The position numbers and the translations under genes were made by a program. The notes under the pieces are model-generated. The model saw only the letters and a program-made list of their open reading frames with translations. It ran no database searches and was not told the origin of the DNA. From IMG/VR virus record IMGVR_UViG_3300020400_000008, positions 1-53,642 of that record: 53,642 nt of DNA; one strand, written 5' to 3'. Source of the stretch: a virus. Taxonomy: Duplodnaviria > Caudoviricetes. Positions within the stretch are counted from its first letter, which is position 1, and the number at the start of each line of letters is the position of its first letter. Of the stretch, positions 3,801-44,672 are shown one piece after another.

Positions 3801-3822
3801 TTTACTCCTTTAAGTATGAATT
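3801..3822 (-). promoter_or_regulatory. conserved early-arm motif, copy 2
   Basis: tttactcctttaagtatgaatt. Confidence 0.8.
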
Positions 3823-3837
3823 ACTTTCATCACCGTT

Positions 3838-4254
3838 TTATTTTGTAGGGAGCGGTGCTTCCCCCACTAGCATGCTCTGTTGTGCGAAGTCGAGCAGGCT
3901 CTTCGCCTGCGGGCTCTCCATGTCCAGACCCAAGGCCATCCCACTCGGGAGCAACTCACCGTAGTCGTTTGCATCCACGTCACCGTGTATGATGATCCAA
4001 GGATGCTCCTCCGCTTGGTACAAGTCCACGCACACGTAGTACTTGCTCGTGCTGGCTGCGCTCTGGTGCGTCGGCTCCTGCTTGACCAACCACTCGGTCA
4101 CCTCGTCGGGCGCACGTAGTTCCAGTGCCACCCCGTACTCCCTGTTGATGCTCACAGGACCGATCCCCTGTATGTGCAATCGCCCTGCTTTCATTCCGTT
4201 CGTTCTCACTTGTATTCTATTCAATCTTCTCATCTCCTTTGTTGACGTACTCAC
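3838..4254 (-). CDS. hypothetical protein
   Basis: 138-aa ORF in the same block as the phosphatase. Confidence 0.6.
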   Translation of the reverse strand: MSTSTKEMRRLNRIQVRTNGMKAGRLHIQGIGPVSINREYGVALELRAPDEVTEWLVKQEPTHQSAASTSKYYVCVDLYQAEEHPWIIIHGDVDANDYGELLPSGMALGLDMESPQAKSLLDFAQQSMLVGEAPLPTK

Positions 4255-5107
4255 TCACGTCGATCATCTCGTCTTGGCACTTGTCGCACCCCACGCCCTC
4301 CTGATTGGGCTCGTGGTGGAATCCCATGTTGTCGCATGAGAGGCACTCGTAGACGTGCTCGCCCTGATGTGAGATTGTCTTTGTGGGGGTGAAGTTGTTG
4401 GGCCACTCCCACCCTAGATTGAAGGGGACATAGTTGCCATACGCCGATCTGCTCACCGGCGGGAACAGGTCCTCGCCCAGTGGTATCTGACAGACGTCCG
4501 CGATGTACTGCTGCTGTGATGCTGCCTCGACCTCGTGCTCGCACATCCTCGACCTGATGAACCGGATCAACTGAGCCGAGTCGGTCCACGTGTGCTCCTC
4601 CTTCGGTATGAGGAGGTGGGCGAGGATGGCCAACTGCACACCCGTCCTGCCGTGGCCACCGACGCACTGGCAGGACACGGTCTTGATGTCCTGCGTCTTG
4701 ATGTCGTAAGCCAAGTCCAACCAGAACTCCCGCTTGAGAGTACGTGGTATGGAGTAGTCGGGCCAGTCGATCGGGATGATGACCGGCGGCTTGGGCGCGT
4801 ACTTGGATATGGCCCAGCCATCGGGGAACGAGAACACGTCCCGCTTCACCACGTCACTTGGGCCCAGCGCCAAGTCAGGCAGTGGGTCCATCCTGTACCA
4901 ACAGCCGTTGCGGCTGGAGCCACCACCGTAGACGTCGACGCCACCGGTGGAGAACACGAGTATGTTGCCAGTGTGACAATCTACCTTGCTCTTCCACACG
5001 CTCTTCACCTCATCCAGTTGCTTCTTCGCTTCCTTCGTTCTTTCCTTGAGATTCTTAGTATGTCGTATCTGCATCTTCTTCTTCTTTCTCTTGCCCATGT
5101 TCACCAC
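4217..5107 (-). CDS. Cys-dependent protein-tyrosine/dual-specificity phosphatase-fold protein with C-terminal zinc ribbon
   Basis: WPD loop (IDWPDYSIP), CX5R P-loop CVGGHGRTG, Q-loop-like VEAASQQQYI, CLSC...CDKC. Confidence 0.85.
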   Translation of the reverse strand: MVNMGKRKKKKMQIRHTKNLKERTKEAKKQLDEVKSVWKSKVDCHTGNILVFSTGGVDVYGGGSSRNGCWYRMDPLPDLALGPSDVVKRDVFSFPDGWAISKYAPKPPVIIPIDWPDYSIPRTLKREFWLDLAYDIKTQDIKTVSCQCVGGHGRTGVQLAILAHLLIPKEEHTWTDSAQLIRFIRSRMCEHEVEAASQQQYIADVCQIPLGEDLFPPVSRSAYGNYVPFNLGWEWPNNFTPTKTISHQGEHVYECLSCDNMGFHHEPNQEGVGCDKCQDEMIDVSEYVNKGDEKIE

Positions 5108-5118
5108 TCCTGTTCCAC

Positions 5119-7524
5119 CTAATCATCAGCGTCATCGAGGTGACCCTGCTCCTTCGCTAAATCGTGAGATTTGATCTTCAGTTTCTTCACCAGCCATGTG
5201 AATGACCCCAATACATGTCCCAATTTTTGTCTCTCGACATCGGTCATTGTCGATGAGTTGATCCGAGCAACGTACTTGTTGACCTTCTTGTCCAAGATGT
5301 GGCAACACCAATCGTAGATCGGCTTGGCGCTGTACTTGCCGTGCCAAGGATGCTTGCCCTTGTAGTACATACGGGCTATCTGGCCATCCTTGTTGATCTG
5401 ATCTTGTATTTCCAAGAACGAAGTACTGGGGGTTTGCTTTACCTCACCATCGAGGATGAACACAGCCATCTTCTCGGTGTCCACAGGGGTGGTATTGGGG
5501 TAATCGTCGTTCAAGTCGATGGTGGCATCTGCCGCAGTGGTGATCGTGCCCTTCACCTCGACCTCCTCTTGGAAATGCTGTTTGCACGACGAGCAGTGTG
5601 GCATGCCGCATGGGACGTACTCCGACTTCTTCGGGTACCTCATAGGATTGATACCAACGCTTGGGTGGACCATCACGTGTGAATCGACCACAGCCCTCAG
5701 TGAGGGCCAGATGAAGTTGGGTTGACTGTGGAACAGGTAGGAGGTTTCATTGGAGTTCAACTCCATCCCCTCGAATATTGGATGCTGCCTCTGGTGGCTG
5801 TGTTTGTTCTTCTTCAGCCACTTGTGCAACATGCCGTACTTCAAGTCGGCCTCGGACTTGTAGGTCGCTGTCACCAGTGGCTCATCCTCGATGATGTGCT
5901 TGGCGATGGCGTACACCTTGACCATGTCGTTCATGCGAGTGTCGGGGAACCCCGCTGTCGCATAGTCGAAGGCTGTCTTCTGTAGGAACTTGTTGAACAG
6001 GTGACCGGTGTTGTGGACGCAGTTCTCCAACGAGTTGATTGACGCCAGCACCTGCTCGTAGTCACCACCATCGAGGAAATCGGCGAGGGCACGTGCGGCA
6101 TCACGCCCATGCTTTGCACCATCGGCCCACTTAGGACCACCGTAAGACGATTCCCAGTTGGTCCTGAACTGCAACCTCATCCAATCAAGGAGGTTGGCCA
6201 CCTGCCTGAAGTCCTCGATGAATATCTTCTGGACACCAGCGTAGTAGTGTCTCCTGACCTTGGTGATCGTGTTTGGGTTGCAGGTGGTGGTGACCTCCTT
6301 CATGATGCCGTCACCGAGGACGGCATGTAGGAAGACCGGAATGTCAGGTGTGTGGGTCTTGTTATGATCCATAGAGTGCCTCATCTCACCCACTGATATG
6401 GCGAAAACCGCCTTGACGATCCAGCCAGCGAAGACTCCAGCGAGGTAGGCGACGACCTTGGGGTCGGACATGGGCATGCTCGCCCACTGGTGGAAGAACG
6501 TGGCGAGCCAGCCGAACTGCTTCTGCCAGTGTTGGTTGGCGTACTGCACACCAGCACGGAACTCACTCACGTACTGGGACGGGTCATATGGATTGGCGAT
6601 GAAAGTATTGTCGGGGTCATTGACGACCCAGCCACTAGCAGGCTCCACCCAAGAGTCACCGACCTCGACGTGACCGATCACGTACGGGATGTGGTGGGCT
6701 CGGCAGTGCGCACAGATGTGCGAGAGGAGTGAGCCGTTAGGTTCGCTGACAACGAAGCCGTCGGGGACGTTGTCCTTGGTGATGAACTCCTCGAGCCAAG
6801 CAACCTGCTCCAGACCAGTTGCCTCGAACACTTCACCGACTTCAACCCTGCCGTCCGGTATGATGCCATTGATGTCGACTCCCTCCGGTGGTGGTGCTAT
6901 ACGGACGTGGTTCTCAGCGCCCCTGATCTGTGTAAGGTACGTGCTGAAAGAATTCTCCTCCGCCTCAAGATGGTCACTCATCTTCCACTTACTCCATGAG
7001 ACGAACTCGATCTCGTGCATTTCAGGATCGAAGTTGAGTCCCTCCAAGTTGTAGAACAGTGATCGGTGACCCATCTTCAATGGCAGCGTGATGCTCAGGC
7101 CATGACCGGCGGTGGTGCCATCGTGACCCTGACCGATCACCGCGTACTTGCCCGGTGCCATGACCGCACTGTAGTCAGCGTCGATGAACGGCTGGAGTAT
7201 GAGGCAGCCCTCCGGGTCCAACTCGAGCATCGAGTTCCTGAGCCTCGCCCAGTCCATCAGGAAGTCGTCGGACCTGATCATCTTCGACTCGAGGACGCCA
7301 TGCCTCGGGGTCAGTGGGGCGGTACGCAGGAAAGCGAACTCCCTGTCGTTCCTCATGAACCACTCCCGTATGTGCTTGGGCTCGTCATCGAGCAGCAGCA
7401 CCATCGTGTGGCGTGGTACCTCGTAGGACCTGTTGAAATCTTCCTCGTAGCGCAGCAGGGCCGCTGCCTTCTGACTCCTGATCCTGTCTATCCTGTCTCT
7501 GTTATGTTGCCTCTCTATCATCAC
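5119..7524 (-). CDS. PPDK/PEP-synthase-like dikinase (ATP-grasp, phospho-His swivel domain, unknown C-terminal domain)
   Basis: LILQPFIDADYSAV, GQGHDGTTAG and EIEFV...YLTQIR resemble the PPDK N-terminal ATP-grasp; GSLLSHICAHCRAHHIPYVIG resembles the swivel motif GGxTSHAAIVARELGIP. Confidence 0.7.
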   Translation of the reverse strand: MMIERQHNRDRIDRIRSQKAAALLRYEEDFNRSYEVPRHTMVLLLDDEPKHIREWFMRNDREFAFLRTAPLTPRHGVLESKMIRSDDFLMDWARLRNSMLELDPEGCLILQPFIDADYSAVMAPGKYAVIGQGHDGTTAGHGLSITLPLKMGHRSLFYNLEGLNFDPEMHEIEFVSWSKWKMSDHLEAEENSFSTYLTQIRGAENHVRIAPPPEGVDINGIIPDGRVEVGEVFEATGLEQVAWLEEFITKDNVPDGFVVSEPNGSLLSHICAHCRAHHIPYVIGHVEVGDSWVEPASGWVVNDPDNTFIANPYDPSQYVSEFRAGVQYANQHWQKQFGWLATFFHQWASMPMSDPKVVAYLAGVFAGWIVKAVFAISVGEMRHSMDHNKTHTPDIPVFLHAVLGDGIMKEVTTTCNPNTITKVRRHYYAGVQKIFIEDFRQVANLLDWMRLQFRTNWESSYGGPKWADGAKHGRDAARALADFLDGGDYEQVLASINSLENCVHNTGHLFNKFLQKTAFDYATAGFPDTRMNDMVKVYAIAKHIIEDEPLVTATYKSEADLKYGMLHKWLKKNKHSHQRQHPIFEGMELNSNETSYLFHSQPNFIWPSLRAVVDSHVMVHPSVGINPMRYPKKSEYVPCGMPHCSSCKQHFQEEVEVKGTITTAADATIDLNDDYPNTTPVDTEKMAVFILDGEVKQTPSTSFLEIQDQINKDGQIARMYYKGKHPWHGKYSAKPIYDWCCHILDKKVNKYVARINSSTMTDVERQKLGHVLGSFTWLVKKLKIKSHDLAKEQGHLDDADD

Positions 7525-7533
7525 TATCTCTCC

Positions 7534-7555
7534 TTTGCTCCTTTAAGTATGAATT
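7534..7555 (-). promoter_or_regulatory. conserved early-arm motif, copy 3
   Basis: tttgctcctttaagtatgaatt. Confidence 0.8.
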
Positions 7556-13372: not shown

Positions 13373-13394
13373 TTTGCTCCTTTAAGTATGAATT
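13373..13394 (-). promoter_or_regulatory. conserved early-arm motif, copy 4
   Basis: tttgctcctttaagtatgaatt. Confidence 0.8.
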
Positions 13395-14335: not shown

Positions 14336-14357
14336 ATTGCTCCTTTAAGTATGAATT
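14336..14357 (-). promoter_or_regulatory. conserved early-arm motif, copy 5
   Basis: attgctcctttaagtatgaatt. Confidence 0.8.
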
Positions 14358-15704: not shown

Positions 15705-15724
15705 TTTGCTCCTTTAAGTATGAA
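15705..15724 (-). promoter_or_regulatory. conserved early-arm motif, copy 6
   Basis: tttgctcctttaagtatgaa. Confidence 0.8.
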
Positions 15725-17048: not shown

Positions 17049-17070
17049 ATTGCTGCTTTAAGTATGAATT
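17049..17070 (-). promoter_or_regulatory. conserved early-arm motif, copy 7
   Basis: attgctgctttaagtatgaatt. Confidence 0.75.
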
Positions 17071-18020: not shown

Positions 18021-18959
18021 ATGTCGGAGGTCATTCGCCTGTATGAGGTGGGTCCACGCGACGGTCTGCAGAACCTCGAGGGCGACATAACCACCGAGAA
18101 CAAGGCCAACCTCGTCGAGTTGCTGCTCGATGCGGGTCTGGACCGCATTGAGATCGGCAGTTTCGTGAATCCGAAGCACGTGCCGCAGATGGGGGACTCG
18201 AAGGACCTGTTTTTGTTGCTGCTTGATAAGGTAGGGGGGCGTGATGCGTTCTCCGTGCTCGTTCCCAACAAGAAGGGCGTTGAGATGGCCCAGAGCGTGG
18301 GTGCCGAGTTCCTCAACATCTACGTCAGCCCCTCGCCAACGTTCCTCAACGACAATCTGGGCACGTTCGAGTTGTCAGAGGTGCTTGATCGGTACGACGA
18401 GGCGCTGGAGGGCATCGATGAGAGCCGCGTCAGGGGCTACATCAGCCTCGCGTTCGACTCACCGTTCGGCGATTGGGATACCAAGGCGCTCGAGGACTGC
18501 ATCGTGTGGTGCAAGGAGAACTGCTCGACGGTCGTGCTCGCGGACACGGCTGGCATGGCCACGGAGAGCAGGCTCACCGAGGTGATCAAGATGGCGAAGC
18601 GGCACACGGACAACCTCGCCCTGCACCTGCACGAGCCACAGGTGAAGAGGATGACCTTCGACAAACTGCTGACGACGGCGTACCTCGCTGGTATCAGGGA
18701 GTTCGACACCAGCATAGGCGGTCTTGGTGGGTGTCCGTTCGTTCCGGGCAGTTTCGGCAACCTGCCGACCGAGTACATCGTGGACTGGGCCGAGTTCTAC
18801 GGCATCGAGATCGAGCAGTTCATCAGCAAGTCGAGGCTCGAGGCGGCTCGCCTGTATGCTGAGTCGATCACCGACACGCCCCTCACGGAGCGCCTGACGC
18901 GCTTCATATCAGGAAAACTGAGTGGTATTCGTCGACGCTGGATTCGTAGCGGAGCGTGA
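18021..18959 (+). CDS. hydroxymethylglutaryl-CoA lyase-like DRE-TIM metallolyase
   Basis: EVGPRDGLQN, GSFVNPKHVPQM, LADTAG, LHLH and GGLGGCPF...GNLPTE. Confidence 0.9.
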   Translation: MSEVIRLYEVGPRDGLQNLEGDITTENKANLVELLLDAGLDRIEIGSFVNPKHVPQMGDSKDLFLLLLDKVGGRDAFSVLVPNKKGVEMAQSVGAEFLNIYVSPSPTFLNDNLGTFELSEVLDRYDEALEGIDESRVRGYISLAFDSPFGDWDTKALEDCIVWCKENCSTVVLADTAGMATESRLTEVIKMAKRHTDNLALHLHEPQVKRMTFDKLLTTAYLAGIREFDTSIGGLGGCPFVPGSFGNLPTEYIVDWAEFYGIEIEQFISKSRLEAARLYAESITDTPLTERLTRFISGKLSGIRRRWIRSGA

Positions 18960-30217: not shown

Positions 30218-31082
30218 GGTGCTCGTCCGCAAGCAGTTGTTCGACCCCAAGCAGACAGCCAGCAACATGGCTGCTGTCACCGATCTCAGTAGCGCGGGTG
30301 CAGTAGAGCAACTCGGCCTCCTCAATCTCCTCAGTGGTCCTCAGAAGCCACTCGCCCCCGCTGCTGCGAAGGAACTCGGATATGGCATGGACTCTCCCCA
30401 GTACAGGAGGATGAGGCTGGGAGAGAAGATAGGCACGGGACTAGCCGGTCTCTACGGCGGGTATAGGATGATGGACGCCATTGCCTCCGGTAGGTCGCCG
30501 ACCAGCGCCATCGGTGCCGGGGCTGGGGCGTATGGTTCGATCGCCCCCATAGCAAGCAGGGTCGGTGTCCGTGCTGCCAGCAGGGGCATTAAACCAGCAC
30601 CAGTCGCAGTTGCACCACCTGTCCCTGAGAAGATAGAGTACAATCCCGTCTTTGACCCAGTCACATTCGGGCAAATGGAAAGGGGTAGGGCAGACACCAT
30701 ACAGCATAGGTTCCAACCAAAGCAAGTCGCAGTCGCACAACCACAACCATTCAGGCAACCTACACCACAGGAGGCTAGGGTCAACAGGTTAGACCCAAAC
30801 CAAACCGTCTTCACACACCAATACGCAGGTAGTCAACTACCTAGGAACATGCCCGAGATAGAGAGTCCCACACCCGAGGATAAAGCCGAGGGATACTTCG
30901 AGGACGAGCAAGTGCCGGTCTTGGCCCAGCAGAGCAATAAATCAGGCAACGTCGCAGTTGCTCAATCACAGCCCAAGGGCAAGAATCTAACCGAGGAGCA
31001 AATGAAGAGACTGATGGAAGGCTCATTGGACAGATTCATGGACACCGAGGCCAAGCAATCGGGTGCAGTGCAGGGTGCGTGA
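30210..31082 (+). CDS. hypothetical protein with Gly/Ala-rich hydrophobic region
   Basis: MSKVLVRKQ...; IGTGLAGLYGG and AIGAGAGAYG. Confidence 0.7.
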   Translation: MSKVLVRKQLFDPKQTASNMAAVTDLSSAGAVEQLGLLNLLSGPQKPLAPAAAKELGYGMDSPQYRRMRLGEKIGTGLAGLYGGYRMMDAIASGRSPTSAIGAGAGAYGSIAPIASRVGVRAASRGIKPAPVAVAPPVPEKIEYNPVFDPVTFGQMERGRADTIQHRFQPKQVAVAQPQPFRQPTPQEARVNRLDPNQTVFTHQYAGSQLPRNMPEIESPTPEDKAEGYFEDEQVPVLAQQSNKSGNVAVAQSQPKGKNLTEEQMKRLMEGSLDRFMDTEAKQSGAVQGA

Positions 31083-31083
31083 T

Positions 31084-32574
31084 ATGAGCAACGAGGGCGT
31101 CAAGCAGTTCGTCGTCGAGATGGACAGGGAGATGTCCAAGAAGTCGTTCAAGTACTTCTTCACCGATATACTGGGTTTCCACTACAGTCACCATCACGAG
31201 ATGTGGGAGAAGGGCCTCAACGGTCACAGGTACTACTGCGTGAAGGCGTCCCGTGACCACGGCAAATCCACGCTTTTCATGTCGTATGCACTGTGGTTGG
31301 CGGCGTTCAACCCCGGAAAGCACATCATGATCTTCTCACACTCGCTCGAGCAGACCCTCGAGCACATGCGCTTTATACGCAACAACATAGAGAGCGCGGA
31401 CTGTCTGAGGGACCTCAAGCCGGAGGGCAAGCCTTGGGCCAAGTCGTACTTCGAGTTCACCAACGGCAGCCGTATGATGGCGAAGTCGGTGGGTGGTGCG
31501 ACTCGTGGCTTCCACCCAGACGTGGTCGTGTGTGATGACATCCTGTGGGGTACTACTGGGACGGAACTACAACGAGCAGCCGATTGGTTCTACGGCGTCC
31601 TGCTCCCTGTCCTGCATCACTCGAGTCGACTGATGATGGTCGGTACCCCGTTCTCCTACAACGACCTGTATGCAGAGTTGGAGCAGAAGGAGACGTTCAA
31701 GGTCGAGACTTATCCGGCCATCAACAACGAGGGCGTCGCCCTCTGGCCAGAGCGGTGGGACCTTGACGCCCTCGAGCAGAGGCGGATGTCCATGCCAGCC
31801 ATACAATTCTCGCGTGAGTACCTATGTGAGCCGATCCACGACGTTGCGAGCATGTTCCCGATGGACATACTGGAGGCTGCACGTGACCATGAACTCGTGC
31901 TCATCGACAGGGCAGAGACCTTCTACAACGACCAAGGCGAGGCGGATGGCGTGTGGGGCCAGCACTTTGTTGGCTGGGACCCAGCGATATCGTCCGACAA
32001 GAACGCCGATTACACGGCCATGACGATCATGAGGTACCTAGGTGACGACGACATCAAGCAGATCGTACATGTCGTTCACGAGAAGGGGCTCGGCAGCCAC
32101 GCACAGAGAAACATGATGCTGTTGCTTAATAACAGATTCAAACCGGAACTGATCGAACTGGAGGGCAACAATTTCCAGCGGATGTTCGAGGCGGAGTTGC
32201 AGGACATGAAGGCCGACATACCGATCCGCACGTTCATGACTACGCGCACGAAGAAGGAGACCCTGTTCATGTCGCTCCTCATGGCGTTCGAGCAGGGCAA
32301 GATCAAACTACCATACGGTGACGAGAGGAGCAAGCAGTACACCCACAAGGTCGAGGAGGAACTGAACCGGTTCGGCATGCAGAAGAACGGCAGGCTCGAG
32401 AGCGTCGGTGTCAATGACGACTTGGCGATGAGCCTCGCTCTGGCCAACTGGGGGACGAAGGAGTTCAAGGGCAGCGTCATGCTCCTTGATGACATCTTAC
32501 CCGGATTCGACGACTGGATGGGAGGCAAGGACCATCGAAAGTCAAATTACGGGAGTCCTTGGATGATACCATAA
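31084..32574 (+). CDS. terL: terminase large subunit
   Basis: Walker A ASRDHGKST, Walker B VVCDD, coupling motif VGTP, nuclease motifs GWDPA...DYTA and NDDLAMS. Confidence 0.92.
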   Translation: MSNEGVKQFVVEMDREMSKKSFKYFFTDILGFHYSHHHEMWEKGLNGHRYYCVKASRDHGKSTLFMSYALWLAAFNPGKHIMIFSHSLEQTLEHMRFIRNNIESADCLRDLKPEGKPWAKSYFEFTNGSRMMAKSVGGATRGFHPDVVVCDDILWGTTGTELQRAADWFYGVLLPVLHHSSRLMMVGTPFSYNDLYAELEQKETFKVETYPAINNEGVALWPERWDLDALEQRRMSMPAIQFSREYLCEPIHDVASMFPMDILEAARDHELVLIDRAETFYNDQGEADGVWGQHFVGWDPAISSDKNADYTAMTIMRYLGDDDIKQIVHVVHEKGLGSHAQRNMMLLLNNRFKPELIELEGNNFQRMFEAELQDMKADIPIRTFMTTRTKKETLFMSLLMAFEQGKIKLPYGDERSKQYTHKVEEELNRFGMQKNGRLESVGVNDDLAMSLALANWGTKEFKGSVMLLDDILPGFDDWMGGKDHRKSNYGSPWMIP

Positions 32575-34292: not shown

Positions 34293-35513
34293 ATGTGGGG
34301 TAGCGCTTTTCTCACTGACTCCTTCGAGATCATCAAGTCGGAGCCTGAGAAACTCACTGCCCCAATCAGGAAGAACATGTTCTCAACCACTGGTGAGGGA
34401 TGGTTTGAGACGCACTTGGGTTGCTCTGCCGCTGACTTCGTCGACAAGTTGCGCAAGATGAGGAGACACAACAAGGACTCCAAGTCCGAGATAGACACGA
34501 TCATCGAGGACGTCAGGACACTCAAGGCCCTAGAGGTCAAGGCCACACTCGATCACATCCCATGGGCTGACGACAGGCATGACACGATACGCAACCTCGG
34601 TCTCTCCGACAGGGATCTCAAGAGCCTCAGAAGATTCTCTGACAGCAGGCAAGTGGGTCTCATACAGGCATGCAACATGTGGGAGGGGGCAGACGCAGCA
34701 CTCAAGTCGCTCGATGATTTCGAGGACGTGTGGGGCAACGAGGAGCAGATGGCATGGGCGAGGGCCATGCAGAGCAAGACCGACGCACGGAAGATGTGGA
34801 GGTCCACCCTACATCAGGCAGACAGCCTCAGTAGCAAGGACAGGGAGACCATCTCCAAGTCAGCCGAGATACTCGCCATCGAGGGACCCCTCACATCACG
34901 CTCCCTCCATGAGAGGCTCATGCAACAAGGCGCAGTCCACAAGAGCATGACACCCTCCAAGTTGTCGAAACTCCTCAAGATGTATGGGGACGCCAATGAC
35001 ATCACATCAGGTGCATCGAGGGGCACCTTCGTCAAGATGCAGGGCAACGGGCTCATACTCAAGGACCCCATGGCGTATGCCGCCGGGTTCTTGGACGCCG
35101 ATGGGTACATCACCATCACAGGGAGGGGTGAGGCACGTGCTGGCTTCGTCGCCACCGGTGACAGGGGCAAGGCTCACTGCGAGCAGTTGCACAAGACACT
35201 CGACTGCGGTGTGCTGCAACTCGATCAAAAGATACACAAGAACAGCACGAGGAGCCAACACAGGCTCCAGTTCTACTCCAAGGCCGATGTCGAAAAACTC
35301 CTGAAGGGCATCCTACCGCACCTGAAGATGAAGGACACACAGGCAAAGGCCGTCCTACAATACATCCATGAGGAAGACCCCCTTCGCAAGGAGCAATTGA
35401 TGCGCGTCGTTCGCTTCTCGAATTGGAAGGATGATACTAAGAAGGCCGAGGATCTGCTAAGCGAATGGGAGTGCACAGTTGATGATATCACAAAATGGTC
35501 GGAGGGACTTTGA
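34293..35513 (+). CDS. LAGLIDADG endonuclease-domain protein
   Basis: YAAGFLDADGYITI...ILPHLKMKDTQA in the C-terminal third; long unrelated N-terminal region. Confidence 0.8.
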   Translation: MWGSAFLTDSFEIIKSEPEKLTAPIRKNMFSTTGEGWFETHLGCSAADFVDKLRKMRRHNKDSKSEIDTIIEDVRTLKALEVKATLDHIPWADDRHDTIRNLGLSDRDLKSLRRFSDSRQVGLIQACNMWEGADAALKSLDDFEDVWGNEEQMAWARAMQSKTDARKMWRSTLHQADSLSSKDRETISKSAEILAIEGPLTSRSLHERLMQQGAVHKSMTPSKLSKLLKMYGDANDITSGASRGTFVKMQGNGLILKDPMAYAAGFLDADGYITITGRGEARAGFVATGDRGKAHCEQLHKTLDCGVLQLDQKIHKNSTRSQHRLQFYSKADVEKLLKGILPHLKMKDTQAKAVLQYIHEEDPLRKEQLMRVVRFSNWKDDTKKAEDLLSEWECTVDDITKWSEGL

Positions 35514-37264
35514 TGGCAGATGACGAGAGCAGGGTCAGTCGATTCCTATCCGCGTTGGGTAGGCCATTCCGAAGGAGAACCACTCCCCAGCCACAGATGC
35601 CCCTCTACACGACGGGCATACAGGAGCCGGTGCTGGCTCAGGGCATCACCATACCGGCGTTGTACGCAGTCTCGCGTGAGAACCTCATACTGAGGACCGT
35701 CCTCGCCAAACTCAATCAGGAGATATTCAGGAGGGGGTACTACTGGGAGAAGAAGTTCGAGTTGAAGTGCACAGACTGTGGTGAGGAGTACAACCACGAG
35801 ATCGACGTCTGCAAGATGTGCGATGGTCCACTGAGGAAGTGCGACCCGGACGAGATCATCTACCCGAAGTGGCTCCTCAATCAGGAGAACTCCATGGAGC
35901 AGTCATTCATGCACGTGCTACAGGAGATAGAGCATGACCTCAACGTCGTCGATGACGCGTTCCTCATCCTCGTCAAGGAGTACTTCGTTGATGAGAAAAC
36001 CTCGGAGATCATGTTCTACAGGGTCAAGGAGATCATCAGGGGTGATCCCATCTTCATGAGGATCGTGTCCGACAAGCGTGGTGTGCGTGGTGGTAGGTAC
36101 AAGGTGTGCCCCATCCACCGCGACCAAGTCTCATACCCCGGTCAGGACGATCCATGTCAGGTGTGTGGCTCCAAGATGGAGGATGCACACTACGTCAACA
36201 TGGCAGGAAGTGGCAAGACGCAGTACTACCTCAAGGGCGAGGTGGTTCACGTCAGCAAGTACAACCCATCCAAGTTGTACGGCAAGAGCCCCGTCAACAC
36301 GATGTGGCGCCAAGCGATGACACTCACAGCCATGGACAACTACATGTACACCGCATACCAGAAGAGAAGGGTACCAAAGGGCATTATATCAGTCACGACC
36401 GACAACCTCGAGTCGATGAAGTCGTTCTGGAAGGCCGTTGACGAGAAGATGGAGCGAGACCCCCACTACGTCCCGAAGGTCGGCATAGAGTCAGCCACGG
36501 GCAGGGGCGGTGTCAACTGGGTCAAGTTCATGGACACGATGGAGGAGATGCAGTACATCTCCGTGCGTGACGAGATAAGAAACAGGATAGCAGCCTACTA
36601 CGGTGTGAGCGCTGTTTTCATGATCGACAACGGGAAGAGCGGTGGGCTCAACAACGAGGGGATGCAGATCCTCGTCACCAACAGGGCGGTCGAGTTCGGT
36701 CAGAAGGTGTACACGGAGATCCTGTTTCCACGCATGCTGAGGCAGATGGACGTGCACGACTGGAAACTCACACTCTATCCGAACGAGGAGGAGGACGAGA
36801 TTACCAGACTACGGAGGGACGAGATGGAGGCCAACCTCGCACAGCGAATGCTGATGCTCGGCTACAAGCCCGAACTCCTCCAAGAGGGACAACGTGACAT
36901 CCGATTTGTTTATCGTAAGCAAGCACCAGAGATGGAAGGGGCTCCACCCGGCGCACCTCCTGCCGGAGGGGCTCCACCGATGATGCCACCGATGGCCGGA
37001 ATGGCTGGTGCACCACCAATCATGGGTGGCATGCAAGCGAGGGGGATGCCTCCGGGCATCATGCAACAGGTCATGCCACCATCACAACCCGGAGGTGAGG
37101 GTGTCGGCATCAGGACGCCAAGCGGTCCAGCACGTCCACAGCAGCGATCATCCATGGGTGCTGGAGCACCATTCTCGAGCGTCCAACAGAGGGGTCCAAC
37201 CAATACTCTGGGGCAGAATGTCTCCAACGCTCTACAGAACGCCAGAAGGCCTCGTGGTGCATAA
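35513..37264 (+). CDS. portal protein with zinc-ribbon insertions
   Basis: follows TerL; SKLYGKSP, PKGII and IAAYYGVS; inserts CTDC/CKMC and CPIH/CQVC; Pro/Gly/Met-rich tail. Confidence 0.85.
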   Translation: MADDESRVSRFLSALGRPFRRRTTPQPQMPLYTTGIQEPVLAQGITIPALYAVSRENLILRTVLAKLNQEIFRRGYYWEKKFELKCTDCGEEYNHEIDVCKMCDGPLRKCDPDEIIYPKWLLNQENSMEQSFMHVLQEIEHDLNVVDDAFLILVKEYFVDEKTSEIMFYRVKEIIRGDPIFMRIVSDKRGVRGGRYKVCPIHRDQVSYPGQDDPCQVCGSKMEDAHYVNMAGSGKTQYYLKGEVVHVSKYNPSKLYGKSPVNTMWRQAMTLTAMDNYMYTAYQKRRVPKGIISVTTDNLESMKSFWKAVDEKMERDPHYVPKVGIESATGRGGVNWVKFMDTMEEMQYISVRDEIRNRIAAYYGVSAVFMIDNGKSGGLNNEGMQILVTNRAVEFGQKVYTEILFPRMLRQMDVHDWKLTLYPNEEEDEITRLRRDEMEANLAQRMLMLGYKPELLQEGQRDIRFVYRKQAPEMEGAPPGAPPAGGAPPMMPPMAGMAGAPPIMGGMQARGMPPGIMQQVMPPSQPGGEGVGIRTPSGPARPQQRSSMGAGAPFSSVQQRGPTNTLGQNVSNALQNARRPRGA

Positions 37265-38936: not shown

Positions 38937-41900
38937 GTGTATGAGGACGCTGCTGACATTTTCATAAGGGCACGTGACGCCCTCATAGAGTCAGTCGACA
39001 ATGACGTGGACATCGACTCCTCCATGCGGGAGTACATATTCGCCAAGTCCAACTTGAGGGCCCATGGGTTCGACTACGATCTCACGTGGCGTGAGATGAT
39101 GTGCGACAGCCTCGTCAAGCAGGAGGGACGGGAGAGATTTGTTCCCAGTTCGGAGTACAAGAGGAAACTGAGGGAAGAGAGGAGGGAACAGCACAAGGGT
39201 CACCTCCCACGCACGAACCACTTCGCTGGTCGCATAAAGAGGAACGACCCATCGGTGTCACACGGCATGCCAGTGAGTGCAATAGCAGATCCTACACGAC
39301 ACCACAGCAGGGCTGATGAGCACATCCTGTCAGCCATCCACGACCCCCTAGAGAAGAGGTCCATGACAAGTGGGGTCCCGCGGAAGATAGACTTCCTAGC
39401 AAGGAGGTTCCTACCCGACGAGGAGGGCAACTCCCGATCCAAGGAGGTCAAGAGGGCAGAGAGACTCATCGAGGACTGGATGGGTGGGACGAACAATCCC
39501 CACGTCACTGAGAACAAGGAGGGCACCTACTCATACCCTCTCCTCGGACCACTCGGTGACTCCGTCGACCAATCCATACTCAGCCACGAGGACGACATCT
39601 ACGAGAGGGACTTCAGGAGATGGAGCCGGGACAACGCAGCGGGTCAGGACAGCAGTGAGATCAGGCAACAGCACTTCAGTGACAGGGCAAAGGGGTGGAT
39701 GGACACATCAGGCCCCGAGTTCGACGAGTCAGGTGAGTTGTCCGAGGATGACAAGAAGATCCTCGAATACCTATCAGAGAGACCAGAGGCAGAGGCCATA
39801 CGAGAGAGGATGGGAACCTCATCCATCACCAAGCACCCCTCCTACCTGAACCAGTTGTCGTTCATGCTCGGTCTCCAGTGGCTCTCACCAGAGGAGCGCT
39901 CCAAGGTCATGTCTCACTTGAACGAGCACGGTAGCGACTCCAAGGAGCAGCATGTGAAGTTCGACGACGGCACACGACTTCCCATGGGACGCTTGAAGAG
40001 AAACATGAGGATGGCATCGGCGAACGCGCTCAGCCACGTCAGGAGGGGACCGAAGGCAGGTCCGCACAACGTCGCACCCGCGTGGTCGCAGTCATACGAT
40101 GTAGGAGCAGGTGTCGATGATAGGGCACTCTACTCCGTTCTCGAGCATGCGTACTTAGTCGATGGTAAGGTCACTTTTGACAGGATAGAGGCGGAGAAGG
40201 CGGAGATGGCTGAGAAGGACAAGCGCTGCATGGATAAATTCGGTAGGAGATACTACGAGTGCACAGTAGAGCAGCAGAGACGAATCGACAGGGAAGTCGA
40301 GGGTCACGGCAAACTCATGAACAAGGCCATGGCCAATCTCCACGAGGCCTTTGGCATCAAAATGGATGACGATAACTACGTGGAGCGATTCATGCACCTA
40401 CCCGACCTATCTGCATCCCAACTGGCTGGCATCAAGGGTGACATGGTAGATGAGATGGAGACACTCACCGCCAGCAAGAAGAAGGGGAACGTGGTGAAGA
40501 GGGACAACCTCCTACACGTGCTTGGCTTCGACAGTAAAGGGAACGAGATACCAACCGGCGACCATGGCTACCCGAACCACTCAGGCCCATTGATAGACAA
40601 TGCCCACCTACAATCCCTCCTCAACAAGGAGAAGGAGTTCAAACTTCTACCCAGCAGACGCAGGGAGATACAGGACGTCCTCTCCTTGTTCGGGACAAAC
40701 GTCCCATTCAAGGACATCGAGAGCCTACCAACGGAGATCCAAGAGGCCATATCCGTGCTTGGTGACAAGCACTTCGCAGGTGACTTCGCAAGCATGTACC
40801 ACGAGGGTGGGCATGCCATAGACCAGCACATACTCACCGAGAAACTTCACGACCACCACTCGGAGGGGGATGACAGCATCATCTCGACCGTGGACAGGAA
40901 CAAGGAGGCCATCATCCCGAATCCGAGGAACATGGGTCTCTTCGGTCATCTGATGCGACCCTCCGCCGAGTCGGACCTCGGCCCCCACGCACTACAACAC
41001 CACTCCAACTTCCTAGGGACGTCACTCTTCAACCACGCCCTCTCCTCCGTCACTTTCCCCTCCGTGGCCAGACTCCTGCACGGTATGAAGCAGTCCGAGG
41101 TCGGATCGAGGTATGGCAAGCAGCAGACCATCGACCAACTCAACAATCTACTCATCGACTCTGCGACGGAGGGCAACAGGAAGAACATACCATACGGCAA
41201 GGGAATCATGATGCTACCGAAGGACATCACCGACTACGATAGGGAGTTGGATCGTGAGGTAGGGGACTTGTTCGCAGGTGGTGGGTCCGTTCGCAGAGAA
41301 ATGAACCTAGACGACTACAGACTCATGTCGGGGGAGCAGAGGAGGAACAAGATCGAGCACATGAGACTAGCCTCGCTGCTTGGTGGTATCCATGACAGGT
41401 TCCCAGCAAGGAACTCACGCATCGACTTCAACGAGGACAACATCAGGCAACTCGAGCAGGCATTCTCTACCACCGATGCCACAGGTGACAGGAGAAAGGC
41501 AGCGAGTCGAATAGATCAGATGAACCTCAAGCACCAATACGAACTCAAGTCGATAGTGGACGCAGCACGTCACCTCGCCACACTCCTACCACCAGAGGCC
41601 CTCGACCCTGACAACCCGGCGTTCGATGCCAACATCAGGAGGCTCTTCCACGATGCCAACAAGTCGTTGCATGTCCTACCACCTGATTATTGGGAGGGTG
41701 TTGGTGTCAGGCCGATGACCGCTGACTACATGATATCCAAGCAGATGCAGACAGCCGAGCCCATCTACAGCCAACTGAGGGAGCGCCTCACACAAGGTGG
41801 TGGCATACCAGTCACCTCCCGCTCCAACCCAAGCGAGTTGGCAGAGCAACTAGGGTTCCCCTTGGACGACGCCCACATCCAACACGTGCGATCATATATC

Positions 41901-44672
41901 GAGAGCATACCACAGGATAGGGTCCAGATCGTGCAGTCGAATCACAATCTGATAAAGGATCATGGTGACCTCATGGGTTTCGACTCAGGAGTGTATGACG
42001 ACCACCTCGACGACCACATCAAGCAGCAGTACGGGCATGGTGCTGGTAGTGCCGACTCACCGCTCGTGGCCGAGCAGCGAAACCTCAAGAGCATCAGGTC
42101 AAGACTAGAGAAAAGGATGCGCGAGGGTGATCAGAGCGTTGCTCAACAACTGCAGCAACTAGAGTCGAGACTGATGGAACTGGACCCACTCATCGAGCAG
42201 GAGAACAGGATACGCTCCTTCGACGCCCTCTACAGCAGGGCATTGAGGTACCTCGAGGACAACAACGTCGATAGGGCTACCTCCACCATATCGAGGCTCG
42301 CGGAGAGGATGGGCATAGAGGTGGACACCAACAACCCTGAACAGGCACTCGAGGGAATCAGCGAGATGATATCCGAACAGAGGGGTGGATTGGGGTACGG
42401 TAGGCAACTCCACGGTCACAGCGAGGCCATTCAAGGGATCTTCAACAAGGACAGGAAGGAGCAGCACTCCGCCTTCGGGATACGACGCATCCAAGCACCA
42501 CTCGACACCACCAAGACGGACGATGGGAGTGTGACCACCACTCCATTCACAAGGATGGGGGAGAGCGAGAGGTACAGGGGTGGAGTGTTGAGCGATACGA
42601 CCAGAGGTCAGGCACGTGAGGGAATGAGCGCCAGCCACAGGCACAACCAGACGCTCCACAACCTACGTGACTTGGTCGTCTACGACCCCGAGAGCGACAC
42701 AGGCGCCAATGAGGACAGCACGTTCTCCACCGAGCGCCTAGACTTCGGTGCACAACCAATCACCGACTTCAACTCGGATGGAGCCAATGCCATGCACTAC
42801 TTCACCAGTGCGAGCGCCAAGAGGCAGAACGGATGGAGAGTGAGGCCAACACACGGTTTCGAGTTCGACGAGGGGTCGCCCCAGATCGGCACCCAGACCT
42901 TCGAGCAAGCACTGGTGTCAGTTCCCAATGACATGATCAGCGCAGCCCTCGGCCCAGACGTCGCTCAGAGGTACCTCTTTAACGGCATGAACACTGATAC
43001 CTATGGTATGACCGAGTTCGATCCACCGGCCAACAGGGGAGATGCGATGGGAGTACCCCTGTCTCAGACACCCATGATCGGCAAGTCGATTCAAGACGCC
43101 GGACTCTATGCCACGTTCATGCTCAACCCGGACCTGATCGTCAAGGCAGACGCCTCACCCGAGTGGGTGCCGCCCATCAGACCCATGCACAGAATATTCA
43201 GGATGAGGGACTTGGAGGAGTTGAGGGGGTTCACCGGTAGTTGGGTCGTCTCCAAGTGGTACGACGGCGACAGGATAGTCCTGACCAAGAAGAACGGGAG
43301 GGTCAAGGCCTTCGACGAGGACGGGGGACAGAGAGCCATTCCAGACTGGGCCAAGAAGGGAGTCAAGAACCTAGGTGAGAAGGACTGTACACTTGATGCC
43401 ATCCTCGGCAAGGAGACGCTTCACATCATGGACATCATGCACTACGACGGCACCGACATCATGGACATGAACGTCAGGGAGCGCTTCAAGGTTCTCAGAG
43501 GACAGTACGACAGTCACGAGCAAGTCATCATCGTAGGTCCGCACGACACGAGGTTCACGGACGAGGAGGGACTGCAGGATGCCGTCAAGACACTACAGGC
43601 AGAGCACAGGACCATCCTGCTCAGGGATGGCAAGAGCACCTACATGCGCGGTGAGAGAAGACATCCCAAGTGGGTGGTGCTGAGACCGAACAGGGACATC
43701 AACCTCATCGTTCTCGATCGCAGGGGCAACGGCCCCTACACGTACAGGCTCGGTGCAGGACCACTGATAGACGGAGAGGGCCTCAATGACAGGGCCGTCG
43801 AGCATGACGGCAAGGTCTACCTCGACGCTGGTACGGTCTCGAGCCCGAAGCCGTTCGAGGAGGGTGATATCGTCAAGGTCAGGTTCTCCGGCATCAAGAG
43901 GGAGAGCAAGGGAGGACGTGACATATTCACGATCAACCCGTCAAAGTTGGTCGGCGAGGGACAAGGCGAGTCCAGTGTCTCAATGGAGACGCTCTCCATA
44001 CTCGCCAAGGCATACCCACCAGTGCATCTCCCACATGGCATCGACATCATGGACAACACCCTGCTTGTCACACTACCCAACGAGAGCATGGTCACATACA
44101 GTTTGGAGAAGAGCAGCCTAGGATATTGGGTGCACTCACCGACCACACCATTGTCCGATATGGGAATGGATACTTACAGCATAGAACTATCCGAGAGCCT
44201 CAAGCCATTCTGGGGCGAGGTCGCCAGCATGATGCTGAAGGGCAAGATAGAGAGGCAGAAGGAGGCAGAGAGCGAGGTTGCACCAAGCGAAGAGCAGCAG
44301 GAGCACCGCAGGAAGGTCATCGAGGGTGAGAGTGCTGGCATCCTGAAACCAGAGGACAAGAACATCCTACTCAAGCCGAAGATGAAGAAGGCACTGGAGG
44401 TGCTCGAGCGGGCACTCGACGTCCTCGAGAAGGAGCAGATGTTCAACACGACTGGTGCCAAGGGCTTGGGCATCGACTTGGGCAGTGGAATACAGAGCCC
44501 AAGGGGACCGACGAGACTCACGTCAGAGATGTCGTTGCCCGACTGGGACATGAAGGAGAGACCGGAGGAGGACCCCGAGGAGGAGTATCCCAAGGCAAAG
44601 GCCCTCAGACAGAGGAAGAAACGCTCGCAGTCAAGCGATTCCGAGGAAGAGATTAATACGAAGCAGGAATAA
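38937..44672 (+). CDS. 1911-aa protein with C-terminal degenerate ATP-dependent DNA ligase-like domain
   Basis: VSKWYDGDR, TLDAIL, IMDIMHYDG, RERFKVL and YMRGERRHPKWVVLRP followed by an OB-like region. Confidence 0.75.
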   Translation: MYEDAADIFIRARDALIESVDNDVDIDSSMREYIFAKSNLRAHGFDYDLTWREMMCDSLVKQEGRERFVPSSEYKRKLREERREQHKGHLPRTNHFAGRIKRNDPSVSHGMPVSAIADPTRHHSRADEHILSAIHDPLEKRSMTSGVPRKIDFLARRFLPDEEGNSRSKEVKRAERLIEDWMGGTNNPHVTENKEGTYSYPLLGPLGDSVDQSILSHEDDIYERDFRRWSRDNAAGQDSSEIRQQHFSDRAKGWMDTSGPEFDESGELSEDDKKILEYLSERPEAEAIRERMGTSSITKHPSYLNQLSFMLGLQWLSPEERSKVMSHLNEHGSDSKEQHVKFDDGTRLPMGRLKRNMRMASANALSHVRRGPKAGPHNVAPAWSQSYDVGAGVDDRALYSVLEHAYLVDGKVTFDRIEAEKAEMAEKDKRCMDKFGRRYYECTVEQQRRIDREVEGHGKLMNKAMANLHEAFGIKMDDDNYVERFMHLPDLSASQLAGIKGDMVDEMETLTASKKKGNVVKRDNLLHVLGFDSKGNEIPTGDHGYPNHSGPLIDNAHLQSLLNKEKEFKLLPSRRREIQDVLSLFGTNVPFKDIESLPTEIQEAISVLGDKHFAGDFASMYHEGGHAIDQHILTEKLHDHHSEGDDSIISTVDRNKEAIIPNPRNMGLFGHLMRPSAESDLGPHALQHHSNFLGTSLFNHALSSVTFPSVARLLHGMKQSEVGSRYGKQQTIDQLNNLLIDSATEGNRKNIPYGKGIMMLPKDITDYDRELDREVGDLFAGGGSVRREMNLDDYRLMSGEQRRNKIEHMRLASLLGGIHDRFPARNSRIDFNEDNIRQLEQAFSTTDATGDRRKAASRIDQMNLKHQYELKSIVDAARHLATLLPPEALDPDNPAFDANIRRLFHDANKSLHVLPPDYWEGVGVRPMTADYMISKQMQTAEPIYSQLRERLTQGGGIPVTSRSNPSELAEQLGFPLDDAHIQHVRSYIESIPQDRVQIVQSNHNLIKDHGDLMGFDSGVYDDHLDDHIKQQYGHGAGSADSPLVAEQRNLKSIRSRLEKRMREGDQSVAQQLQQLESRLMELDPLIEQENRIRSFDALYSRALRYLEDNNVDRATSTISRLAERMGIEVDTNNPEQALEGISEMISEQRGGLGYGRQLHGHSEAIQGIFNKDRKEQHSAFGIRRIQAPLDTTKTDDGSVTTTPFTRMGESERYRGGVLSDTTRGQAREGMSASHRHNQTLHNLRDLVVYDPESDTGANEDSTFSTERLDFGAQPITDFNSDGANAMHYFTSASAKRQNGWRVRPTHGFEFDEGSPQIGTQTFEQALVSVPNDMISAALGPDVAQRYLFNGMNTDTYGMTEFDPPANRGDAMGVPLSQTPMIGKSIQDAGLYATFMLNPDLIVKADASPEWVPPIRPMHRIFRMRDLEELRGFTGSWVVSKWYDGDRIVLTKKNGRVKAFDEDGGQRAIPDWAKKGVKNLGEKDCTLDAILGKETLHIMDIMHYDGTDIMDMNVRERFKVLRGQYDSHEQVIIVGPHDTRFTDEEGLQDAVKTLQAEHRTILLRDGKSTYMRGERRHPKWVVLRPNRDINLIVLDRRGNGPYTYRLGAGPLIDGEGLNDRAVEHDGKVYLDAGTVSSPKPFEEGDIVKVRFSGIKRESKGGRDIFTINPSKLVGEGQGESSVSMETLSILAKAYPPVHLPHGIDIMDNTLLVTLPNESMVTYSLEKSSLGYWVHSPTTPLSDMGMDTYSIELSESLKPFWGEVASMMLKGKIERQKEAESEVAPSEEQQEHRRKVIEGESAGILKPEDKNILLKPKMKKALEVLERALDVLEKEQMFNTTGAKGLGIDLGSGIQSPRGPTRLTSEMSLPDWDMKERPEEDPEEEYPKAKALRQRKKRSQSSDSEEEINTKQE

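Follow-up and report, generated by a model that had tools for sequence, protein, structure and literature searches.

Dikinases that pass phosphate through a mobile histidine domain (His-swivel dikinases) are a small class, with acceptor domains so far for pyruvate, starch, rifampin, phenol and prodigiosin precursors, each of which came with new biology. Glucan water dikinase, one such enzyme, phosphorylates polymer hydroxyls, and a phosphatase with a CX5R motif (SEX4/laforin) removes the phosphate. Here we describe three adjacent genes in the linear virus record IMGVR_UViG_3300020400_000008 from IMG/VR (53,642 bp, CheckV completeness about 50%), analysed at its whole length and called the window below. 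They encode a large dikinase-like protein (the kinase), a Cys-based phosphatase of the protein tyrosine phosphatase (PTP) superfamily and a small acidic protein, each from an open reading frame (ORF) on the minus strand:

5119 to 7524, minus strand: large gene (kinase), ORF with a GTG start, 801 aa
4217 to 5107, minus strand: Cys-based phosphatase gene, PTP superfamily, ORF of 296 aa
3838 to 4254, minus strand: third gene of the block (cluster 3), ORF of 138 aa

An earlier note on this DNA, made from the letters alone, had proposed that the first two genes are a viral phosphorylation writer/eraser pair. The gene pair that it described is found in the ORF translations, with 801 aa and 296 aa and 11 nt between them (5108-5118), and all the peptides it quoted are present in the 801-aa translation: LLSHICAHCR (residues 265-274, about 6703-6732), SYGGPKW (460-466), HNTGHLFNK (504-512) and CGMPHCSSC (639-647). 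The true start of the large gene is likely the ATG at 7521, one codon inside and behind a strong AGGAG site, which gives an 800-aa protein in agreement with the Atlas record. We consider it fairly probable that the three genes form a phage-specific, translationally coupled unit, in which kinase and phosphatase act on one shared molecule in host takeover or anti-defence. The likeness to the glucan water dikinase/SEX4 system is an analogy; that system is eukaryotic, its genes are unlinked, and no carbohydrate-binding module was found by Pfam in the window protein.

The large protein has both an N-terminal ATP-grasp domain of the PPDK_N type and a mobile PEP-utilizers domain with a catalytic His, i.e., the two parts that define a His-swivel dikinase. 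Its features, by residue, are the following:

6805 to 7524, minus strand: compact ATP-grasp nucleotide-binding domain of the Rph/PPDK type, residues ~1-240
6610 to 6792, minus strand: phospho-histidine swivel domain, residues ~245-305, from hhalign, conservation and structural alignment
6718 to 6720, minus strand: codon of H269, inside NGSLLSHICAHCRAHHIPYVIG
5890 to 6582, minus strand: all-helical putative acceptor domain, residues ~315-545, from DSSP and per-residue model confidence (pLDDT) of the predicted model, and conservation
5584 to 5667, minus strand: H620...C639-G640...C644...C647 cluster, from conservation in 57 sequences
5134 to 5439, minus strand: C-terminal three-helix bundle, residues 696-797, variable among relatives

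Statistical support from sequence comparison is confined to the His domain, for which a 215-row family profile compared by hhalign with a 28-sequence dikinase reference gave E 1.1e-4 (56.9% probability, 48 columns). H269 aligns with the His of the E. coli PpsA motif, in a profile-profile alignment that covers the His motif only and is not significant (E 0.055). Comparisons of the large protein with 24 PpsA/PPDK sequences (E 0.059; 6 of 30 extracted ORFs had been dropped as wrong-frame, without a GGK.A.L signature near the N-terminus) and with the kinase of Vibrio phage J26 (E 0.15) were likewise not significant. Weak matches to PF00391 (PEP-utilizers) were obtained for 4 of 57 family members (best E 0.0088), and the language-model neighbours of the protein in the Atlas are PPDK-like clusters (score 0.88), taken as a lead only.

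Conservation across the catalytic half is nearly complete. H269 is kept in 212/212 relatives of the broad family set, and the same holds for R67, P70 and G76 (211/211 each), T138 (212/212) and R201 (213/213), with K19 in 206/207, E173 in 209/211 and Q199 in 211/212. Low-confidence extended columns of the hhalign alignment place SQK19 on GGK, LR67TCPLTPRHG76VLES on VRSGAAESMPGMMDT without gaps, QGHD135G on QGED, E171-I-E173-F on DIEF and Q199-I-R201 on LQxR. We take these reference motifs to be the nucleotide-site signatures of PPDK, in which the Lys of GGK, the Arg of VRS, the Mg-binding Glu and the Gln-x-Arg presumably have their roles. Structure searches with the predicted model rank Rph, PPDK and PpsA first, and the Rph and PPDK alignments run through their His domains. 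With these rankings, the His-domain profile match and the conservation of H269, the ATP-grasp and swivel-His architecture proposed by the earlier note is borne out.

What follows the His domain sets the protein apart from the enzymes that it most resembles. In PPDK and phosphoenolpyruvate (PEP) synthase (PDB 1kbl, 2ols; TIGR01828) the nucleotide and His domains are shared with the window protein, but the ATP-grasp of the latter is about 150 residues shorter and the PEP/pyruvate TIM barrel is absent from it. The barrel model PEP-utilizers_C gave no Pfam match at E up to 1 and no NCBIfam match, and DSSP on the predicted model finds helices only in residues 315-545; we therefore do not class the protein as a PPDK or PEP synthase, and the view that its C-terminal region is not a barrel holds. 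The domain order in Rph (PDB 5hv1, 5hv2, 5fbs) is ATP-grasp, rifampin-binding domain, His domain, whereas the window protein has ATP-grasp, His domain, helical domain, which is the order of PPDK. None of the Rph structural alignments reaches model residues 315-545, no NCBIfam Rph model matched, and an Atlas hint at Rph_4th, used as a lead only, had a chance-level score (0.80). We know of no dedicated phosphatase partner for Rph. The large protein is thus filed as a His-swivel dikinase with a novel acceptor domain, neither PPDK/PpsA nor demonstrably Rph.

Within the helical domain, E380 (215/215), R382 (214/215), R424 (207/208), G462 and G463 (211/211), H504 and N505 (209/209) and K512 (208/208) are conserved, and this invariant polar set would suit a second, phosphate-receiving active site. 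A profile of the domain found no match among dikinases (E 0.28-0.45) or, in a profile search, among PDB sequences. Further towards the C-terminus, H620 is invariant and C639, G640, C644 and C647 are each present in 90% or more of 57 sequences, a cluster that possibly binds metal.

The family to which the large protein belongs is large and essentially viral. A word-indexed search retrieved 77 relatives, and when 1.84 billion cluster representatives were searched exhaustively with HMMER, 903 matched at E <= 0.001, 500 at <= 1e-10 and 67 at <= 1e-30, each match being a cluster at 50% identity. The family core spans residues 64-527, and longer forms of 1000-1400 aa exist. Pfam recognised nothing in the kinase core of 8 fused long forms, 10 distant representatives and 5 diverged large proteins; a single Hexapep match was obtained in one of the 10 distant representatives. 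Neither window protein had a tblastn match among 50,697 GenBank phage records, and PDB sequence searches with the large protein, as a single sequence and as a profile, returned chance-level rows only. Among 185,579 species genomes, one locus was found (L062; loci are numbered with the prefix L), on a 30-kb contig of a Parvibaculum sp. metagenome-assembled genome (MAG) with full phage-type synteny (SNF2, ArdC-like, kinase, phosphatase, cluster 3 onwards). It is probably a phage contig binned into that MAG, or else a hint of an alphaproteobacterial host.

The second gene encodes a phosphatase with the complete set of PTP-superfamily motifs, i.e., a CX5R(S/T) loop, a WPD-type general-acid Asp and Q-loop glutamines, the Q-loop having a role in PTP catalysis:

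4757 to 4765, minus strand: WPD general-acid motif, W115-P116-D117, with P116 and D117 invariant
4646 to 4666, minus strand: CX5R P-loop, C148-V-G-G-H-G-R154, with C148 and G150-G156 invariant
4277 to 4345, minus strand: zinc-ribbon-like cluster C255, C258, C274, C277, each present in 90% or more of 49 sequences

In the protein these motifs read DWPDYSIP (113-120) and CQCVGGHGRTG (146-156). From 198 relatives, 49 sequences were aligned, in which P116-D117, C148-x-G-G-H-G-R154-T-G and Q198-Q199-x-Y201 are invariant, as are C44, G62, G63, R66 and W70 in the N-terminal part. Against the PDB, the profile of the family scored best with classical PTPs (E 4.9e-4), with which it aligned through the WPD loop, P-loop and Q-loop; the WPD motif aligned with those of PTPRO and CRYP-2 (PDB 2pi7, 2g59), and the profile's SQQeYI with TEEQYIFI of CRYP-2. 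The intact WPD and CX5R motifs claimed for this protein are accordingly invariant in the family and aligned with the classical enzymes. The alignment is confined to the C-terminal half of the PTP domain; the N-terminal part and the four-Cys tail, which may bind metal, are particular to the window family. The window phosphatase matches phrog_17568 (4.6e-11), and diverged syntenic phosphatases exceed Pfam cut-offs, for Y_phosphatase (20.9) in L046 (30.0), L047 (25.4) and L051 (23.8), and for PTP-SAK with 36.2 against a cut-off of 27. Because the general-acid Asp is invariant, PTP enzymology argues for an O-linked phosphomonoester as the substrate; the WPD, CX5R and Q-loop equipment would fit hydrolysis of such an ester and not of a phosphoanhydride.

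The two genes are found together with great regularity. We gathered 54 IMG/VR loci by the kinase profile and clustered their ORFs together with the Parvibaculum MAG locus and the window. By tblastn, the phosphatase lies downstream of the kinase in 51 of the 54 IMG/VR loci, and by ORF clustering it is the very next same-strand gene in 54/55 kinase-holding sources, the exception (L042) being a 926-bp fragment; L054 holds neither gene. The spacing has a median of -4 nt, is exactly -4 in 28/54 and never exceeds +35; over-long start calls are the probable source of the large negative values. Among 64 loci gathered by the phosphatase instead, 57 have a family kinase ORF ending at most 400 nt upstream; the others comprise three with too little upstream DNA, L162 with a canonical barrel-less dikinase, and three with neither (L150, L154 and L159). 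In the most diverged loci (L046, L047, L051 and L053; 22-27% identity) the pair alone persists and all other neighbours differ. The tie to the dedicated Cys phosphatase is tighter than that between most toxin-antitoxin partners. The earlier note had named three outcomes that would speak against it, namely an ordinary PEP-binding barrel, a His that is not conserved and homologues that do not co-occur; the corresponding searches found no barrel, H269 in every relative, and the two genes together at the loci counted above.

Some members of the two families have unusual lengths or neighbours. At L040 (1524-7150), a 1374-aa kinase-family protein is followed by a 506-aa phosphatase. At L150 (4348-6066) and L154 (4414-5943), phosphatase homologues of 510-573 aa have no recognisable kinase upstream and instead very long ORFs (853 and 1196 aa, open-ended).

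The third gene was absent from the earlier account of the block, and it is conserved: its family, cluster 3, is syntenic in 45 sources. It begins inside the end of the phosphatase gene, an overlap forced by the conserved core of the ORF. Q15, H27, Q29, R38, Y40, G41, S65 and Y73 are invariant and the tail is acidic; the ORF had no family match, and its PDB sequence search stayed at chance level. Near-identical DNA occurs in 11 runs from four marine studies. Short contigs from RNA libraries (at least 99% identity) cover parts of all three block genes (6-7 of 30 bins), and each of the two RNA runs has a contig that spans the junction of the kinase and phosphatase genes (5004-5206 and 5017-5175).

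The block itself is delimited by a repeated element. The 13-mer ATACTTAAAGGAG occurs eight times on the minus strand of the window (six exactly, two with 1-2 mismatches), where 100 shuffles lead one to expect 0.31, and 7 of the 8 sites have in common a 22-nt element, AATTCATACTTAAAGGAGCAAA, directly before a start codon:

7534 to 7555, minus strand: 22-nt element AATTCATACTTAAAGGAGCAAA heading the large gene, with its 13-mer core at 7538-7550, then a second AGGAG and the start codon
3805 to 3817, minus strand: next block-heading motif copy, at the end of the three-gene block, heading the DUF932 gene
705-717, 3805-3817, 7538-7550, 13377-13389, 14340-14352, 15709-15721 and 17053-17065, minus strand: copies of ATACTTAAAGGAG heading seven blocks

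The motif-headed block described earlier is therefore real, with copies before the large gene and the DUF932 gene, and because the copies at 7538-7550 and 3805-3817 bracket them, the kinase, the phosphatase and the 138-aa ORF are assigned to one block. The 22-nt element may be an early promoter, a leader or a processing signal. A sigma-70 scan found nothing above chance at its sites, promoter and terminator scans of the window did not exceed shuffles, and a tRNA search of the window found none.

Similar gene pairs occur in cultured phages, where GenBank labels 'pyruvate phosphate dikinase' and 'tyrosine phosphatase' stand near each other. In Vibrio phage J26 the order is annotated PPDK (691 aa), CsrA and PTP; in RcZahn, DLP3 and RHph_Y1_11 it is kinase, 2-3 small genes, PTP, a hypothetical protein of 340-480 aa and a second PTP paralogue. 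Altogether, four cultured lineages (the Vibrio J26 and SIO-2 group, Rhodobacter RcZahn, Rhizobium RHph_Y1_11 and Stenotrophomonas DLP3/DLP5) carry a canonical kinase without a barrel and, close to it, a homologous phosphatase, with both genes on one strand as in the window. These kinases are easily recognised, in contrast to the window protein: Pfam finds PPDK_N (1.1e-45) and PEP-utilizers (1.9e-19) in that of J26, and no barrel. Against the PPDK equivalog (TIGR01828), the J26 and RcZahn kinases match only up to position 523 of 865, and their scores (461 and 570 bits) lie below the cut-off (843). Their C-terminal region, about 170-190 aa, has no profile match to that of the window protein, and the modules, usually with a second PTP paralogue, are not reached by tblastn from the window proteins. 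The phosphatases, in contrast, are demonstrably related, as the window-type phosphatase hidden Markov model (HMM) matched 7/7 cultured-phage PTPs (E 3e-10 to 9e-20, 31-62 bits), hhalign of the window-type against the J26 phosphatase gave 89.5% probability, and both belong to the same PHROG (phrog_17568). Cluster HMMs of the other window-type module genes found no match among the cultured-phage module genes. The J26-type kinase (phrog_18609) is present in 60 phage records.

The literature on both genes consists of genome descriptions, and we found no paper that gives the pair a function. In the portions of the J26 paper at hand, PPDK and phosphatase are read as separate auxiliary metabolic genes, and a TIM-barrel pyruvate-binding domain is described in the authors' own model of ORF98 (PMC12038007), which our domain and equivalog scans of the J26 kinase do not support. 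The DLP3 paper, in the sections at hand, merely lists the kinase and phosphatase genes (PMC7326821). The papers on aRES and NARP3 concern other enzymes. The description of the system as undescribed therefore holds in part: the diverged family is in no library that was searched, but cultured phages already carry an annotated PPDK-like gene that lacks the barrel and has a homologous phosphatase nearby.

Annotation errors appear to be spreading among these phage genes (J26, L096 28651-29505; DLP3, L098 9404-10180; phrog_17568). DLP3 gp141 is labelled 'thymidylate synthase' and is a PTP-fold paralogue (window-type phosphatase HMM, E 9e-20). The label 'thymidylate synthase' of phrog_17568 likewise looks wrong, its J26 member being a PTP (2e-78), and the 'pyruvate decarboxylase' of J26 has no Pfam or NCBIfam support.

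The following mechanism would account for the locus. The compact ATP-grasp domain would bind ATP and phosphorylate His269 on the mobile domain, with release of AMP by analogy with PPDK, PEP synthase and Rph. The phospho-His would then swing to the all-helical acceptor domain particular to this family, where E380, R382, R424, H504, N505 and K512 may hold the acceptor hydroxyl that takes the phosphate. The Cys phosphatase, with its WPD, CX5R and Q-loop residues, would hydrolyse an O-linked phosphomonoester, and the 138-aa acidic protein may be an adaptor or a substrate. Kinase and phosphatase would have one target molecule in common and work on it either at a single site, to set and reset it, or at two positions; one-site writer/eraser action and a host molecule as target may apply. 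This shared action is tentatively placed early in infection, within a host-takeover or anti-defence programme. Of this account, the data show the folds, the catalytic residues, the coupling and the confinement to phages, while chemistry, common substrate and timing are inferred. Neighbouring genes are SNF2, DUF932 and ArdA for the window and ArdC-like, Kyano_Gp96 and Pyr_excise for its relatives. As context only, they and the repetition of the 22-nt element suggest an early, host-takeover or anti-restriction region.

We would like to note several points that weigh against this account. No Pfam, PHROG or NCBIfam model matched the large protein, HMM-HMM comparison of the ATP-grasp region alone was not significant (E 0.058 against 0.31 for the reversed control), and no Foldseek row for the model reached E 0.001; the nucleotide-binding half accordingly rests on predicted structure and motif collinearity. 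A new fold is not claimed for the helical acceptor domain, which was predicted as part of a larger model. The window phosphatase itself scores 17.5 bits for Y_phosphatase, below the Pfam cut-off of 20.9. Many of the loci come from related phages (most 40-118 kb) with wider synteny, some of them near-identical, and the counts given above are therefore higher than the number of independent lineages. A search of 219 family sequences for kinase-phosphatase fusions found none. The junction-bridging RNA contigs are compatible with co-transcription, but may also stem from DNA carry-over. Finally, in the cultured phages the two genes are 1-3 small genes apart and lie by terminase and portal, not in an early region.

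Nevertheless, the coupled three-gene unit remains the reading we favour. One tentative version, to which we give a rather small chance, is a phosphorylation switch with a protein acceptor: the dikinase would phosphorylate a Tyr or other hydroxyl of the 138-aa protein (Y40, Y73, S65 and H27 are candidate residues) or of a host defence or transcription factor, and the PTP-like enzyme would reset it. Phenylphosphate synthase, a member of the class, phosphorylates a phenol.

A doubtful alternative is hypermodification of DNA or nucleotides, in which the dikinase would activate a base or DNA hydroxyl for substitution and phosphatase-fold enzymes would trim or transfer phosphate, as a protection against restriction. 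The J26 module adjoins DNA polymerase A, and the neighbourhood in the window is rich in anti-restriction genes. The entry step of hydroxymethyl-pyrimidine pathways is a ThyA-like hydroxymethylase, but such an enzyme (PF00303) was absent from 5/5 pair-carrying genomes that are 95-100% complete (ThyX and other routes were not searched), and no paper was found joining hypermodification, phage and dikinase. Genomic DNA of DLP3, a phage with the canonical kinase as well as two PTP paralogues, withstood each of the 15 restriction enzymes tried, from which its authors infer an unidentified modification; but DLP3 also has a glycosyltransferase, which the same sections of the paper discuss as a possible DNA-modifying enzyme (PMC7326821).

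Nucleic-acid end-healing is decidedly unlikely. Here the kinase would act on 5'-OH ends and the phosphatase on 3' or 2',3'-cyclic phosphates, similar to T4 Pnkp, in the repair of tRNA or mRNA cut by host defence nucleases. Pnkp combines kinase and phosphatase in a fixed ratio on one polymer and some Cys-phosphatase-fold enzymes act on RNA ends; the conserved Cys/His clusters in both window proteins could moreover bind nucleic acid. Yet neither RtcB nor an Rnl-type RNA ligase (RNA_ligase) was found in the same five genomes, where a host ligase could serve, the invariant WPD Asp fits a hydroxyl leaving group and nothing specific to nucleic acid, and we know of no dikinase that acts on polynucleotide ends.

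It is equally improbable, in our judgement, that the two enzymes have separate targets and that their adjacency is inherited synteny among related phages. Other clusters (3, 6, 4 and 7) are also syntenic across many loci (besides cluster 3, cluster 4 in 36 sources and cluster 6 in 28), some loci are near-duplicates, the genes are not directly adjacent in the cultured phages, and three loci have the phosphatase with no recognisable kinase upstream. Set against this are the survival of the pair alone in the four most diverged loci, the 4-nt overlap kept in 28/54, and the reappearance of an analogous pairing, there with a canonical kinase, in L162 and in phages of Vibrio, Rhodobacter, Rhizobium and Stenotrophomonas. 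The last alternative, a true PPDK or PEP synthase whose gene, as an auxiliary metabolic one, would divert the carbon and ATP metabolism of the host, has the GenBank labels, the published J26 model and the nucleotide and His domains common with PPDK in its favour, but it is hardly credible: a central-metabolism PPDK is excluded because the barrel is missing, and the PPDK reaction leaves nothing for a dedicated phosphatase partner to do.

Beyond the block, the minus-strand region (~1-17.5 kb of the window) contains the genes for the SNF2 helicase, DUF932 and ArdA, and the rest of the window has terminase, portal and head protease genes on the plus strand. In many relatives the three-gene block is followed by a conserved run (L008 10071-14028; equivalents in about 26-36 loci) of cluster 6 (about 200 aa), clusters 10 or 16 (about 195 aa), cluster 4 (about 510-580 aa), clusters 8 or 19 (about 105 aa) and cluster 7 (about 170-245 aa). 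None of these clusters had a Pfam or PHROG match. Cluster 6 is also present at 721-1380 of the window, whose contig stops before the expected clusters 4 and 7. Three other genes of the window stand out:

18021 to 18959, plus strand: HMGL-like protein of the pyruvate carboxyltransferase / aldolase family (E 5.7e-20), an unusual gene of metabolic type where the strand blocks switch
34293 to 35513, plus strand: 406-aa HNH endonuclease-domain protein, between the large terminase (31063-32574) and the portal (35495-37264)
38937 to 44672, plus strand: 1911-aa ORF in the structural region, with no match at E <= 0.001 in a PDB sequence search

The kinase described here represents a large, essentially phage-confined dikinase family, unnamed in the libraries searched, with a new helical acceptor domain and a dedicated Cys phosphatase; together with the translationally coupled PTP-superfamily phosphatase and the small third protein, it makes up an unstudied, widespread and phage-specific module. 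For cultured phages, the analysis corrects an annotation, as the 'pyruvate phosphate dikinase' of about 60 records is without the pyruvate/PEP-binding domain in the members tested (J26, RcZahn and L162). Because the barrel is absent from these members and a homologous phosphatase is close by in four lineages, the cultured-phage 'PPDK' is unlikely to work in carbon metabolism. Cultured hosts exist for related phages (Rhodobacter capsulatus for RcZahn, as well as Vibrio and Stenotrophomonas), which makes the proposal directly testable. If a protein acceptor were to prove true, no earlier member of the PPDK/Rph superfamily would have been protein-directed, the kinase would stand for a class that every kinase model misses, and a self-contained phosphorylation switch would be of a kind unknown in any virus. 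The identity of the substrate could reveal new chemistry of phage takeover, counter-defence or DNA modification.

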